A DNA stretch of 64,000 nucleotides from an uncultured Verrucomicrobiota bacterium. GTDB lineage: Bacteria > Verrucomicrobiota > Verrucomicrobiia > Limisphaerales > CAZZJO01. Positions 15,839-21,158 of the stretch are shown piece by piece; position 1 is the first letter of the stretch, and each line of letters starts with the position of its first letter. The stretch spans positions 24,650 through 88,649 of the forward strand of contig CAZZJO010000043.1 of the NCBI GenBank assembly GCA_964654645.1, written 5' to 3'. The translations under genes and the position numbers were made by a program. The notes beneath the pieces are model-generated. The model worked only from the letters and a program-made list of their open reading frames with translations, was not told the DNA's origin and did no database searches.

Positions 15839-16804
15839 ATGATGCGGGTTATTAGACCTTTTGTGCTTAGGCGTGGCGATGCAATAGGAGTAGTCATGCC
15901 AGCGAGCCCCCCAACTCATGATGATTTGGAAATGGGTATTCAACATCTGGAAAAACTAGGGTTCCGCGTAGTGCTTGCTCCATATGCTACTGCCAAAAAT
16001 GGGTATTTGGCGGGGAGGGACTCCGTGCGAGTTCAGGAGCTAACGGGAATGGTAAACAACCCTCAAGTAAAAGCTATCATTTGTGCGCGTGGCGGATACG
16101 GTACATTTAGGATCCTTAAGCATATAGATTACGCGTTGTTCCGCGAACATCCCAAAATATTTGTCGGGCACAGTGACATAACGGCTTTGCAGTGTGCGAT
16201 ATGGAAAAGAGCGAGGTTAATTACGCTGCATGGGCCTATGGTGTGTTCTGATTTTGGTCGGCCTGAAATATCCAGGTTCACGGTGGATCATTTTTTAAAA
16301 ATGGTATTTGGACAGTGCACTGGTGAACTGTTCAATTGGCGTAAATCCATGCAAGGAGGTGAATCCTTGATTGTGGTCCAGACAGGACGTGCCCAAGGCA
16401 GGTTAATAGGAGGTAACCTATCGGTATTGTGTGGGTTAATCGGAACGCCGTGGTTTCCGGATTTGAGGGGGAACCTTTTGTTTGTGGAAGACGTGAATGA
16501 GCCACTTTACCGGTTGGACCGCATGTTTACCCAGTTAATTGAAAGTGGTTCTTTGGAGGGCGTAGCGGGAATCCTTGGGGGTAAATTTGCTGGGTGCACA
16601 TCAAATGGGGATGAGGATGCGATCCTGGAAAATGTGGCATTCCTGATGAAGGATCGGTTTAGTAAGTTGCGCGTTCCGATCGTGGTAGGGCTGCCATTTG
16701 GTCACGTTCCTGATAAACTCACAATCCCTTTCGGAGCGAAAGCAGAGCTTAATACCCGCTCTAAGCGGTTGACGTTGCTTGAGCCAGTGATTGTCGGGGT
16801 TTAA
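15839..16804 (+). CDS. ldcA: S66 family LD-carboxypeptidase
   Basis: ARGGYG, GHSDIT (Ser), GGNLS, FVEDVNE (Glu) and FGH (His). Confidence 0.9.
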   Translation: MMRVIRPFVLRRGDAIGVVMPASPPTHDDLEMGIQHLEKLGFRVVLAPYATAKNGYLAGRDSVRVQELTGMVNNPQVKAIICARGGYGTFRILKHIDYALFREHPKIFVGHSDITALQCAIWKRARLITLHGPMVCSDFGRPEISRFTVDHFLKMVFGQCTGELFNWRKSMQGGESLIVVQTGRAQGRLIGGNLSVLCGLIGTPWFPDLRGNLLFVEDVNEPLYRLDRMFTQLIESGSLEGVAGILGGKFAGCTSNGDEDAILENVAFLMKDRFSKLRVPIVVGLPFGHVPDKLTIPFGAKAELNTRSKRLTLLEPVIVGV

Positions 16805-17031
16805 GGGTTGTACGGGCCGACCAAGATTCTGTAGAATCGGACGTTATATTTGGCTGCGTTTGTATCGGTAACACGGATCGGCGTCGAGTTTGGGGTTATC
16901 CTCAGGATATCTTCCCAGTGGGTGAGATTTTGTGAGGCTTGGATGGTGTATTTAATGCCTGGGATGGCATCTATTTCAATTGCGGCAATTCCATTTTCGA
17001 AGCTGATTCTATTAATTCTGGGCTGTGGTGG
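16801..17031 (-). other. Shared C-terminal domain, copy 1 (..KYTIQASQNLTHWEDI..RFYRI)
   Basis: Aligned by eye with the three other copies in this window. Confidence 0.65.
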
Positions 17032-19713
17032 AGCGCAGACCGTTACTGCCAGCCATTGTGTAGCGCTGAGTGACGTTCCATTTGTGGTGATGGCCGATAC
17101 AGCAAAGTAGTATGTTGAACCTGCCTGGGCGATGGTGGGGTGCCATGTAATTAAGCCGGTTTCTGGATCGATTGACACCCCTTGTGGAGCATTTAGCAAG
17201 GTGTACGAGATACTGTTGGTAACCCAAGCCGGCAAGGTATAACCGGGTTGGATCCGGATTGGTATACCCGCCACTGCACTTATCAAAGGAGTGGGGTTAA
17301 GCGTTGTTTGAATAGTCGGGGTGTTCCTAATGGGGCCAGCTAAGAAGTTGCCGGCTATTTGTTCCGGTGTTAAGACACCTGCATGAATGCGGATGGAGTT
17401 TATGAACCCAGAAAAGAATTGGGATAATGTGCCATTGGAATTTCTCTGGCATCCGATGTTGATTGGTTTGTTGGTGGTACTAAGCGGGCCATTAAGTTTC
17501 CACTGCCATCTAAGGATCCCATCCACGTAGATTCTGACCCATTGATTGGAGTAGATATAGACGAGGTATTGCCAAGAGCCTGCTTTGGGTGGTGTGCCTC
17601 CCCAGGCAACGTCGTCGCCTCCGTGCGTAGCGGCTCCGCATGATGTGCTGGACCCAAAATTAAACGCGCAGTTAAACCTTAGGCTTTTGCGTTCCCCCCA
17701 GGAGACAAGGGTTTCTTCAGTGTTTAAATTAGGGTTATAAACCCACACTTCGATGGTACGGGGAGCATCGCCGAGGAGCGAGGTGGGTGGTATGGGTCCG
17801 ACAAAGCCGTCAGAGGAGCCATTAAAGTAGATCCCAGGGATGCCCGTGTTTGAAACGTTTAGCACAAGCACAGGTTTACCAGTCGGGATAAAATCACCTT
17901 TTCCAGTTCGGTTTGACCATAGTAATCCATTAAAGTCAGCTGCCCTGAGATCTGCTATTAGCTCGCTGGATGTATAGGGTGTGGTAGGTTGGAGCGCATC
18001 TGGACCAGCTAGCCAGCTCGAAAGGACTTCAGCGGGTGAAATAGCGCGGTTATAAATACGGATTTCTTCTACTTCGATTGCTGCGTTGTAGTTCGATGAA
18101 GCTTGGGCTCGGCCAATCCAATTGTTCACGTCCTGGATATCCTGCAGTTTGAAATCGACGTCGAGGTATCCGAGTGGTGTCCCATTTCGGTAAATGGTAA
18201 ATCTACCTCCATTATTAGCCCATTGTCCAACCCCAGCTTCGTAGGTGACAACGTATTGGTATGTTTGGCCTTTTGGAGTATCGCAGAGCATATTAAGATT
18301 CCTGGTTACGTTTGAGTGGGTGACGGAGAAGGTGATCCGAGAAAGATCGGTGTTTGTGCTTAGGCAAAGGGCGATTTCTTGTGCAGGGGTGGTTAACCCT
18401 GGGGCGGGGGCTTCGCTGGAGGAGACCCACTCGCCAGGCTCTGCATTTCCAAGTTCTGTAGTTCTACCAAAACTAAAGAGTCGTTGACCCGGCCTCGCAG
18501 TTACTGGGTTGACCCAGATTTCGATGGTCAGGTTGGAGAATGCTGAGATGATTTTGTTAGGCAAGTCCAGATACGCAGATATGCTGTCCCCTGCAACATT
18601 GCCTGTTGAAAAACCTGGTAGGTATAGCCCTCGTCCCGTAGCTACTGCGCCTTGGCCGCGAATTATTGCGGGGACCCCCGAAACGGAATCGAGTGTTATT
18701 GTCCCTGGTGCTAACGGTCCTAAAGTGCAATTGAACGACCATCGATAAGTTAAACCATTGGCGATGGGGGGAGGCGGTAATGCTCGGTTTCGCCGAGCAT
18801 AGACAGATTGGGCAGTGATGGCGATTTTTCGTGCATTTTCGCCGCCGTTTACAAGGCTACCCATTCCACAATTGCTTTTGGTGTTACCGAGAAGGGTTAT
18901 GCCCATAAACTGGAGATTTGAGCTTGTAAAGTACGGAATCGTAGTTCCTCCGCAGTAACCCATTAACATTACTGTCGTGTATTGGAGACCGTTTGTTCCG
19001 GTGAATTGGAGACCATCCTCGTGGGTGGCACCGAAGTTGTGAGCAAGTTCGTGCGCAAGTACGGTGTACCAAATCGCTTGATCTGAATAAACGGAGTATT
19101 GGCCTGGCAATTCCGCAACAGCGGAGTAACCCGTGGTTTTTGCAATATAAGCAACTAAGTCTGCCCCATTGCTAGCTGCAAAGGTTCGCACATCATTGAA
19201 TCCAGAATACCAGCTGAGCAGATCTAGTACATCCGCTGAATTAAGGTCGATTGGGTCGAGCGAGGATTTATAAAATCCACACACGCGAAATCTGACCTCT
19301 GTCCGACTATTTTCATAGATGCTGTTAGCGGTAAGAAGTGCTGTCGCAAATTGCAACTGTAAGTTTTCTTCGCCTCCTGCCCGCGCAACCGCGGTGGGGG
19401 AGTACGCGCATGCTACGTCGATTTCTACAACCTGGGCATGTAAGTGGTAAGACGTAAAAAGTGTGAAAGCTAAGAAAACAGCCAGTGATTTAAGGAGTAG
19501 GGATAGACTCAGGCACGAGGGTTTAGCAGGAGATGGGTTTTCCGATGGGGTGGTGTCATTAATTGCCGGGTACACCCCTTCCCTCGGGGTGTAACCTGCC
19601 TTGTTTCGCAGGGCGATCAAGGCACAAACGGGTCCCCACCCTCGCTTTTTGCCTGATCGGCTGCGTATGGAGTTTTTGCTCCATCGCAAGCCTGTCATTA
19701 TCCCACCTCCCAC
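16801..19713 (-). CDS. Exported metzincin (reprolysin/M12B-like) with two LamG-like domains, an Ig/cadherin-like domain and a C-terminal RFYR domain
   Basis: HELAHNFGATH zinc motif (19021-19053) and TVM Met-turn. Signal peptide ends ..YHLHA-QVVEID. LamG signatures (TIEIWVNP..RLFSFG, EEIRIYNRAIS; TIEVWVY, NSIRIH) and GVSIDPETGLITWHP. The true start may be ATG 19698 or later. Confidence 0.8.
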   Translation of the reverse strand: MGGGIMTGLRWSKNSIRSRSGKKRGWGPVCALIALRNKAGYTPREGVYPAINDTTPSENPSPAKPSCLSLSLLLKSLAVFLAFTLFTSYHLHAQVVEIDVACAYSPTAVARAGGEENLQLQFATALLTANSIYENSRTEVRFRVCGFYKSSLDPIDLNSADVLDLLSWYSGFNDVRTFAASNGADLVAYIAKTTGYSAVAELPGQYSVYSDQAIWYTVLAHELAHNFGATHEDGLQFTGTNGLQYTTVMLMGYCGGTTIPYFTSSNLQFMGITLLGNTKSNCGMGSLVNGGENARKIAITAQSVYARRNRALPPPPIANGLTYRWSFNCTLGPLAPGTITLDSVSGVPAIIRGQGAVATGRGLYLPGFSTGNVAGDSISAYLDLPNKIISAFSNLTIEIWVNPVTARPGQRLFSFGRTTELGNAEPGEWVSSSEAPAPGLTTPAQEIALCLSTNTDLSRITFSVTHSNVTRNLNMLCDTPKGQTYQYVVTYEAGVGQWANNGGRFTIYRNGTPLGYLDVDFKLQDIQDVNNWIGRAQASSNYNAAIEVEEIRIYNRAISPAEVLSSWLAGPDALQPTTPYTSSELIADLRAADFNGLLWSNRTGKGDFIPTGKPVLVLNVSNTGIPGIYFNGSSDGFVGPIPPTSLLGDAPRTIEVWVYNPNLNTEETLVSWGERKSLRFNCAFNFGSSTSCGAATHGGDDVAWGGTPPKAGSWQYLVYIYSNQWVRIYVDGILRWQWKLNGPLSTTNKPINIGCQRNSNGTLSQFFSGFINSIRIHAGVLTPEQIAGNFLAGPIRNTPTIQTTLNPTPLISAVAGIPIRIQPGYTLPAWVTNSISYTLLNAPQGVSIDPETGLITWHPTIAQAGSTYYFAVSAITTNGTSLSATQWLAVTVCAPPQPRINRISFENGIAAIEIDAIPGIKYTIQASQNLTHWEDILRITPNSTPIRVTDTNAAKYNVRFYRILVGPYNP

Positions 19714-20417
19714 TTTTTATTTCGGCATGAGGGAGGGCTAAGTTTAGCCTGGCAAAGCCCATTTTCGGAAAGGGTTGAGCAAGATTTCTGCGGACGAAGC
19801 CGTTTCAATTTCATCAGAAACGGTTTCAGCAATTGTTCCATTTGGTTTTAAAGGTGGTTTTGTGCTGTCTACGTACAGGTTTTTGACCGCAAGGCAGTGT
19901 GAGTATTGTGATTTGCACACTTTAGGGGGGATGCATCCCTGAACGGCTGTCGATTTAACGGCGGTTCCCGTAACAGATGCTATCCCAGTTAAGCAGTCAA
20001 AGAGCTAATGGAGTGTGGGTTTGGTGTCAGCATTAACCGCTAGACTGAGTCCGAAGGTCAGTGGTTCCGAAATACGAATTGTTTTCGGGGTGAAGCAGTC
20101 TTACGGCATCTTGAATTCAACGAGTAAGTGAGAAGAGATTTGCTACATGGGGCCGCTCAAATTGAGGTTCATTTGGGAGAAAGCGTAAGGCTAATCCTCA
20201 ACATTTTATGGCGTATGAAAGGGCGAAGAAGGGTGTTTGGTCCAATGGGTGGTTTTCTGGGAAATGAAAGGATGGCTCTGTACTTTGATACGAGTGCCAG
20301 CCTAAGAGACCAACGTTGACTTCAAGATTTGGGAAATAGGAAAGGTTAGGATGAGCCCCGGGTTATTTATAGGGGGTTAATTGTTTTTTTAAAAGTAGAA
20401 TATGATGGGGTGAGGTG

Positions 20418-21158
20418 TCACTCTTGAGGCGAAATCTTTTGATTTTCACGCTTGATGAAGTCTTGTGGCCACAACAGATCGGGGCGGCCATGTGTGGTGG
20501 GATCGACCTGTTTAACAATAAGTTCGCCTGGATGGCGTGGATCCCCTACTAAGTAGAGTCCCCAATCATAGTCAATGATTACAAAGGCTTCGCGGTTATT
20601 GATGAACGCCAGGCTGACGACAGAATTAGGTCTGCCTTTGATTCGAGCGGTGAGTTCACCTTTAGACGCATCGTGTGCTAGTTCAACCTTGATGGGTTCA
20701 ATAAGGAATTCTTGGCCATCGAGCCCTGGCAAAACGAGCTCTGTGATTGGTTCCCCGGTTAATTTGGCTTTTTGGAAAATAGATTGGGTAGGTATGTTTC
20801 TATACACAAGTTGCCGCCTAATAACCGAACTGTTTTCCTCAGCCATTTTTTCGTAATGGTGCGGGTTTAGTGCTAGCAAACGGAGGAAATTAGTGTCTTT
20901 CCCATCATCGATTATGACCCATCCATGGAGCTTTGAAGTCAGAGTTGGAACCAGCGAGAAGGCTTCGGATAAATTGGTCTTCGTATTGGTTTCGTAAGCA
21001 ACGGGACTCGTGCGCTGGGTAACTGAAGGATTTGGATGGGTTAGGGGCCCAGAATGAATTGGAAAGGCCTTTTTATTGATGAATTTGGCTGTTAACCACC
21101 CGAATAAGATGATTGCGGCGATTCCGAGCACAAATGCGAAATGGCGATATTTAGCCAC
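20418..21158 (-). CDS. Membrane-anchored or exported hypothetical protein resembling a reprolysin-type prodomain
   Basis: N-terminal hydrophobic helix. The beta-rich segment LVLPGLDG..GELTARIKGRPNSVVSLAF..REAFVI..GELIVKQVDP resembles bacterial M12B prodomains (recognised by eye). Confidence 0.6.
   Translation of the reverse strand: MAKYRHFAFVLGIAAIILFGWLTAKFINKKAFPIHSGPLTHPNPSVTQRTSPVAYETNTKTNLSEAFSLVPTLTSKLHGWVIIDDGKDTNFLRLLALNPHHYEKMAEENSSVIRRQLVYRNIPTQSIFQKAKLTGEPITELVLPGLDGQEFLIEPIKVELAHDASKGELTARIKGRPNSVVSLAFINNREAFVIIDYDWGLYLVGDPRHPGELIVKQVDPTTHGRPDLLWPQDFIKRENQKISPQE

Follow-up and report, generated by a model that had tools for sequence, protein, structure and literature searches.

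A probable split zymogen in Verrucomicrobiota: a membrane-anchored prodomain homolog encoded beside a reprolysin-like peptidase

Two neighbouring genes on the minus strand of a 64,000-nucleotide stretch of DNA from an uncultured Verrucomicrobiota bacterium (contig CAZZJO010000043.1, positions 24,650 to 88,649; "the window" below means this whole stretch) probably form a split zymogen. The smaller gene (20418-21158) encodes a 246-residue protein that appears to be a prodomain turned free-standing and tethered to the inner membrane; the gene downstream of it (16801-19713) encodes a reprolysin-like peptidase without a prodomain. Latency in metzincins is usually put down to a covalently linked propeptide, which has to be cut off. 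A first-pass annotation of the window had suggested that the prodomain is here supplied by a gene of its own, and that idea is now supported by synteny, by one-to-one co-occurrence, by the co-divergence of the two partners, by profile homology to prodomains encoded in cis and by a predicted fold that may resemble that of the chaperone CpaB.

Conserved pairing of the small gene with a peptidase gene

Co-occurrence in other genomes was one of the checks proposed with the first-pass annotation, and it revealed a near-universal pairing. Of 40 other contexts, 39 have a gene for a prodomain-less reprolysin-like domain next, or next but one, downstream of the small gene on the same strand. For all 31 loci on genome contigs, the next same-strand gene after the small gene is matched by the hidden Markov model (HMM) of the catalytic domain, and its product begins, or nearly begins, with a reprolysin-like domain and has no prodomain. 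The same pairing was found in three further distinct metagenome loci, in genome G316, in the frameshift product P0114 and in a paralogous pair from the window's own genome.

The two genes are as a rule tightly spaced. Most loci have the catalytic domain beginning about 70-170 nucleotides (nt) past the end of the match to the small protein. The signal peptide is encoded within this span, which leaves room for only very short intergenic spacers. Three loci have a distance of about 900-1000 nt, since there the peptidase has a PATR-like segment of about 290 residues ahead of its catalytic domain. In three contexts from metagenomes or metagenome-assembled genomes (MAGs), 0-26 bp separate the small gene from a same-strand partner gene downstream, and these partners consist of a signal peptide, at once the catalytic-domain homolog, and then LamG_3 and PATR repeats.

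In the window's own genome (G000) the small gene and the catalytic domain each occur exactly twice, paired side by side. At the second pair (contig C20, locus L008, 5673-10831, minus strand) the small protein ends in ..VCGTP, and its gene is followed by one for a 271-residue protein tyrosine phosphatase-like (PTP-like) product with the motif HCEHGADRTG and then by one for a 1190-residue peptidase with HETGGHNYGRTHNDG. Scans of about 340 Verrucomicrobiota genomes (301 from the phylum, 41 from the order) gave strong matches to the small family solely in G000 (twice), G171, G264 and G316; strong matches to the catalytic domain (E < 1e-90) were found in exactly these genomes, again twice in G000, each adjoining the small gene. 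The pairwise distances within the two partner families are correlated, with an r of 0.48 that was reached in 0 of 2000 permutations, and the window pair is the most divergent member in both families, with the nearest neighbours, L020 and L030, common to both.

The sole exception in 41 contexts is P0104, encoded at locus L048 on a 5.9-kb contig (Logan DRR318519). Its tail type and its upstream CTP_transf_like neighbour are as in the window; downstream lie clpP and an ABC transporter gene, the own-genome counterparts of which are found on another contig. A rearrangement breakpoint falls directly after the small gene at L048.

The small protein and its C-terminal tail

Both genes were found where the first-pass annotation had placed them, on the same strand. 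From its open reading frame (ORF) and its homologs, the small gene (20418-21158, minus strand; GTG start) is interpreted as encoding a putative membrane-anchored prodomain homolog in trans to the peptidase. The strings by which this protein had been characterized (LVLPGLDG, GELTARIKGRPNSVVSLAF, EAFVI, LYLVG and GELIVKQVDP) are all present in its sequence, and HExxH is absent from it, as had been said. Modelling with AlphaFold2 (AF2) bears out the beta-rich body, and the topology that it predicts is that of a membrane-anchored or exported protein.

The full-length AF2 model shows a helix at residues 5-26, disorder at residues 29-66 and a fold at residues 70-220. The hydrophobic helix (21081-21146) would serve as a signal anchor, or possibly as a cleavable signal peptide, and a hydrophobic N-terminus is present in every full-length homolog in alignment A1. 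It is followed by a disordered, variable linker (residues 27-69; 20952-21080), in which the predicted local distance difference test (pLDDT) score is <50 at residues 29-41 and 50-66, and which is unconserved in the same alignment. What is conserved across the family is the domain of about 150 residues that comes after these two elements. In the window protein this folded domain spans residues 70-222 (20493-20951), on the evidence of the domain-only AF2 model (pLDDT 91.5, predicted template modelling score 0.85), hhalign and Foldseek; its beta-rich half (residues 139-222; 20493-20744) is the part that hhalign relates to cis prodomains. The C-terminal tail HGRPDLLWPQDFIKRENQKISPQE (residues 223-246; 20421-20492) is modelled less confidently, with pLDDT 66-77 in the domain-only model.

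We identified 67 homologs of the small protein at E <= 1e-23, and the family has 171 representatives at 50% identity, nearly all of them stand-alone proteins of 110-290 residues, with source names and locus titles that indicate Verrucomicrobiota. Two loci with a pair of the Verrucomicrobiota type, L026 and L030, sit in MAGs labelled Bifidobacteriaceae or Bifidobacterium, probably as a result of mis-binning. Neither the protein nor the family profile had any sequence match in Pfam, NCBIfam or the PDB, and in the PDB nothing was found at E <= 10 with either query. An anti-sigma or other regulatory role, suggested by an extracytoplasmic function (ECF) sigma factor with a kinase, or a GntR-type regulator, upstream in two loci, was rejected because these upstream neighbours are unconserved and the peptidase is conserved.

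The tails of the family fall into a few classes. Among 88 complete C-termini, 42 have a CG motif, mostly as ..VCG(N/T)P in the final residues, and five contain another Cys; acidic tails (..GDDFIKT..) account for 18, tails of the form ..GGEPI(K/L)T.. for ten and other types for 13. The terminal ..VCG(N/T)P resembles the cysteine switches of MMP and ADAM proteins, which read PRCG(V/N)PD and PKMCGV. The window tail, ..LLWPQDFIKRE, lacks a Cys and is of the acidic "DFIK" class; by analogy with the tail of CpaB (PMC7542363) and with cysteine or aspartate switches, we propose that it may block the active site.

The prodomain-less peptidase

The partner gene (16801-19713, minus strand; maximal ORF of 970 residues) encodes what Pfam and NCBIfam identify as a multidomain, exported reprolysin-like peptidase. 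The protein matches Pfam Reprolysin_3/4/5 over about residues 98-270, with scores exceeding the Pfam cut-offs, and further carries two Laminin_G_3 stretches and He_PIG; a weak NCBIfam match (E 3.7e-8) is to the CpaA catalytic region. Within the catalytic domain (18673-19437; HMM match over ORF residues 93-347, E 1.7e-108), alignment of motifs places the zinc motif HELAHNFGATHED at residues 221-233 (19015-19053), and the Met-turn region TVMLMGY is found at residue 247 (18955-18975). An HExxHxxGxxH zinc motif, then a Met-turn, together with the Reprolysin models, fit a metzincin of the adamalysin/reprolysin type; the third His of the motif precedes E-D, not D directly.

A hydrophobic stretch, KSLAVFLAFTLFTSYHLHAQ (19426-19491), resembles a signal peptide in its sequence and stands at the position at which the homologs have canonical signal peptides. 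Immediately past this stretch, at ORF residue 93-98, the catalytic match begins, which leaves no room for a cis prodomain, and the peptidase indeed lacks the part that the small protein would supply. That it has a signal peptide of its own holds in so far as a hydrophobic stretch precedes the catalytic domain, but the n-region would be unusually long if translation began at GTG 19575. Among the canonical in-frame starts this one comes nearest to the hydrophobic core, at a distance of 27 codons on its upstream side, and within those 27 codons there is no ATG, GTG or TTG. An alternative start, ATG 19698, has a strong Shine-Dalgarno sequence (GGGAGGTGGG) ahead of it and would lengthen the protein by a basic stretch of about 70 residues; the peptidase likely starts at one or the other.

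The zinc helix varies within the partner family. When the window segment (19015-19053) was aligned with loci L001, L003, L005, L008, L015 and L017-L047, a one-residue insertion (AHExGGHxYGxxHxDG, with HExxxH in place of HExxH) was seen in 32 of 36 partner peptidases. The classical spacing is retained in the window, L020, L030 and L047, and also in L046, but there N replaces the Gly of the motif. In the peptidases of L017, L035 and L045, a PATR-like beta-helix segment of about 290 residues separates the signal peptide from the catalytic domain.

Homology to prodomains encoded in cis

Other Verrucomicrobiota encode weaker reprolysin-like paralogs that are classical cis zymogens, in which a transmembrane anchor, a linker, a body of about 130 residues, the motif ..(V/I)DPxxxPxCG.. 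and a second linker precede a catalytic domain with HELGHNFGCxHD. The zinc motif is classical in all of these zymogens.

A profile of eight cis prodomains (A5) was aligned by hhalign with that of the small family (A2), giving E = P = 5.6e-5 and a score of 37.9 over 88 columns. The alignment is colinear and ends with IDPxxYxxGxCG opposite VDPxxxPxCG. Control scores were 16.1 for the reversed profile, 13.3 on average for 30 column shuffles (standard deviation 2.2, maximum 19.1) and 8.6 for an unrelated alignment (A3). The pattern of reprolysin prodomains that the first-pass annotation had read in the small protein is thus recovered by profile comparison as remote homology to Verrucomicrobiota cis prodomains. 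On these alignments we take the small protein to be a remote homolog of the cis prodomains, with the gene boundary just past the position of the cysteine switch. Comparison of the small family with single cis prodomains by hhalign gave nothing significant (probability <= 1.5%), and a homolog search with the L055 cis prodomain returned only the query itself.

The search for fusions, likewise proposed at the outset, had a divided outcome: no true fusion carrying the exact family was found with the family profile among 1.84 billion representatives, whereas related Verrucomicrobiota do encode homologous prodomains in cis. Of the candidates, P0114 appeared to fuse the small gene with the peptidase and proved to be a frameshift artefact joining adjacent genes; P0161, P0179 and P0198 merely have longer N-termini.

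Predicted fold of the small protein

The first-pass annotation had named structural similarity to metzincin prodomains as a test of its proposal, and by Foldseek this similarity is weak, the ADAM17 prodomain being matched with a probability of 0.44-0.84 and a template modelling (TM) score of about 0.25. The best superposition is with the CpaB chains of 6o38 (probability 0.89-0.99, TM-score 0.51-0.57 when normalised to CpaB). CpaB is a membrane-anchored chaperone whose gene lies 22 bp from cpaA and which is needed for type II secretion of CpaA (PMC4713064).

The spacer between the two genes

The spacer (19714-20417, minus strand) is unusually long and, by searches for ORFs, Rfam families, repeats, promoters and terminators, without recognisable content. 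Its given length of 704 bp is correct to the start of the maximal ORF, and becomes 719 bp if measured to ATG 19698 and 842 bp if measured to GTG 19575. There are no ORFs with homologs within it, no Rfam match above threshold, no promoter or terminator consensus, and neither a plasmid match nor a repeat within the genome itself; nor is there any trace of the PTP-like gene known from the paralogous pair or of the N-terminal PATR-like extension that L017, L035 and L045 have. The z-score of its predicted RNA fold is -2.18. The spacer is C-rich on the coding strand (29.5% C vs 15.6% G), and GC skew is positive on the plus strand in all 2-kb bins over the 64 kb (0.02 to 0.27), whatever the gene orientation.

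Alternative explanations

Several observations weigh against taking the two genes as a split zymogen. P0104, which at 40% identity is nearer to the small protein than any other relative found, has clpP and not a peptidase gene downstream. A LamG-like segment follows the catalytic domain in every partner, so that synteny alone cannot single out the catalytic domain as the client. The spacer measures 704-842 bp here as against tens of bp elsewhere, and co-transcription over the 704-bp gap is, as the first-pass annotation had cautioned, uncertain. The same annotation noted that a cysteine-switch Cys is missing, which is true of the window member, although it is not true of the family, about half of which has the CG motif. 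The hhalign probability for the cis-prodomain match is 66%, not >90%, with the match confined to the beta-rich half, and PF01562 is unmatched by the window protein or any of the 67 members, even at E <= 5. As to structure, Foldseek returned no match for the model of the small protein at E <= 0.001; the ADAM17 prodomain entries rank high by E-value yet superpose poorly (TM-score ~0.25), and the CpaB superposition has a TM-score of ~0.40 when normalised to the query, a root-mean-square deviation of ~5 Å and E-values of 0.07-0.3. In sequence, CpaB is matched neither by the small protein nor by the family profile.

Of the rival explanations, the one that survives best is that the small protein is purely a periplasmic inhibitor or immunity protein, similar to AprI/Inh, which shields the envelope of the producer against protease that is active too early and has no part in folding or secretion. 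A membrane-tethered periplasmic domain encoded alongside a protease would be expected of such a protein, and the Cys-, Asp- or Glu-containing C-terminal tails fit a blockade of the active site, just as the tail of CpaB blocks the active site of CpaA in a manner "similar to zymogens" (PMC7542363). Strict one-to-one co-inheritance fits either model equally, and computation cannot separate the two. Metzincin zymogen prodomains, however, usually both assist folding and confer latency, and it is to prodomains of this kind, encoded in cis, that the small protein is homologous. Moreover CpaB, the closest structural match, is needed for both the secretion and the stability of CpaA (PMC4713064, PMC7542363). 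We therefore regard a pure inhibitor as unlikely.

Another possibility is that the small protein is an adaptor for the secretion, anchoring or sorting of giant LamG/PATR proteins, which would act through their non-catalytic part and resemble a prodomain only incidentally. All partners examined are large, multidomain and exported (970 residues here; ~1,100-2,300 in complete loci), they have LamG_3 and often PATR repeats, and the Foldseek E-values are non-significant. Yet what stays constant among the partners is a reprolysin-like domain located N-terminally or nearly so, and other large LamG/PATR proteins encoded beside these loci do not each have a small gene of the family upstream; the cis-prodomain profile match also stands well above its controls, with the CG(N/T)P terminus aligned to the cis Cys-Gly. 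Such an adaptor is accordingly very improbable.

Least probable of all is that the pairing is decaying or merely historical in the window genome, with the two genes separately transcribed and uncoupled and the small protein perhaps linked to its conserved CTP_transf_like neighbour: this would suit the contentless spacer of 704-842 bp, the absent switch Cys and the case of P0104, with the CTP_transf_like neighbour retained and clpP downstream, yet both ORFs are intact, the two proteins are the most divergent of their families with common nearest neighbours, as co-evolving partners would be, the gap has no terminator-like site, and the L048 contig, at only 5.9 kb, could have its peptidase elsewhere.

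Proposed mechanism and origin

For the split zymogen we infer a sequence of binding, help with folding, latency imposed by the tail and release on export. The peptidase would pass the inner membrane via Sec without a prodomain, whereupon the tethered prodomain-like domain would bind the catalytic domain, aiding its folding and/or maintaining its latency, and the flexible C-terminal tail would occupy the active-site cleft. Where the tail ends in ..CG(N/T)P, as it does in about half of the members, it could bind the zinc in the way of a cysteine switch; the acidic ..QDFIKRE tail of the window protein might serve as a plug, either of the aspartate type or purely steric. The enzyme would then become active on its way out through the outer membrane, as it is pulled off its anchored partner, with no need for proteolysis of a propeptide. 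With four secretins and four GspF-like proteins encoded in the window genome, an export route for folded periplasmic proteins exists.

How the arrangement came about is an evenly balanced matter. The pairs may represent a metzincin zymogen family that arose by gene fission just past the cysteine switch, with an anchored "trans-propeptide" that often ends in ..CG(N/T)P-COOH and with activation that is not proteolytic. On such an origin, the prodomain would have retained the ancestral membrane anchor and the catalytic part would have acquired a signal peptide of its own. Were fission the correct explanation, CpaB-type chaperones of adamalysin-like proteases might generally descend from cis prodomains; the present family suggests that dedicated secretion chaperones, CpaB among them, originated from cis prodomains.

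CpaAB is the known precedent, and the pair described here is no new principle. New, to our knowledge, are the apparent derivation of the small protein from cis prodomains, a motif at the terminus that resembles a cysteine switch, and a whole Verrucomicrobiota family of such pairs; literature searches gave no description of any of the three. The pairs offer a natural system in which to study folding assistance and latency in trans, and a function can be proposed for an unannotated family of 171 clusters at 50% identity for which there is no Pfam model. In practical terms, heterologous expression of these giant LamG/PATR metalloproteases, which come from environmental and gut-associated Verrucomicrobiota, will probably require that the small partner be supplied.

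Comparison with known systems

AprI and Inh are periplasmic inhibitors of serralysins that are encoded with the protease and block its active site; they differ from the small protein in being soluble, with cleavable signal peptides, in having another fold and in bearing no relation to prodomains. The lipase-specific foldases (Lif, LipB, LipH), which are anchored in the membrane, serve in the periplasm as steric chaperones that their client requires ahead of type II secretion (PMC4713064, PMC13381987). Their genes also adjoin that of a single secreted client, and the analogy is functional only: the foldases have an unrelated, all-helical fold and an unrelated client, a lipase, and they are not active-site blockers.

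With the cis prodomains of the M12B (reprolysin/ADAM) zymogens, the small protein shares a colinear beta-rich body ending in ..DPxxxxxCG and the proposed roles in folding and latency. It differs from them in being the product of a separate gene and a separate membrane-anchored polypeptide, with no match to PF01562; the window member is without the Cys, and release is proposed to occur by dissociation, not by proteolytic cleavage.

The closest parallel is CpaB/CpaA of Acinetobacter (6O38), in which CpaB is both the type II secretion chaperone and the inhibitor of CpaA, a glycoprotease of adamalysin-like type. In both systems a small protein with an N-terminal transmembrane helix and a periplasmic domain (here predicted) is encoded on the same strand as, and adjoining, the gene for a secreted adamalysin/reprolysin-like metallopeptidase, and the catalytic domains are related (E 3.7e-8). 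The small gene lies upstream here, whereas cpaB is downstream of cpaA; the domain has about 150 residues, with an extra helical N-terminal part, as against about 120; and the pairs belong to another phylum, with giant LamG/PATR proteins as the clients. Sequence similarity between CpaB and the small family is undetectable, and the latter is related to cis prodomains by profile comparison and often has a terminal Cys-Gly. What the two systems would have in common is the logic of the mechanism, proposed here for the Verrucomicrobiota pairs and experimentally shown for the Acinetobacter pair.

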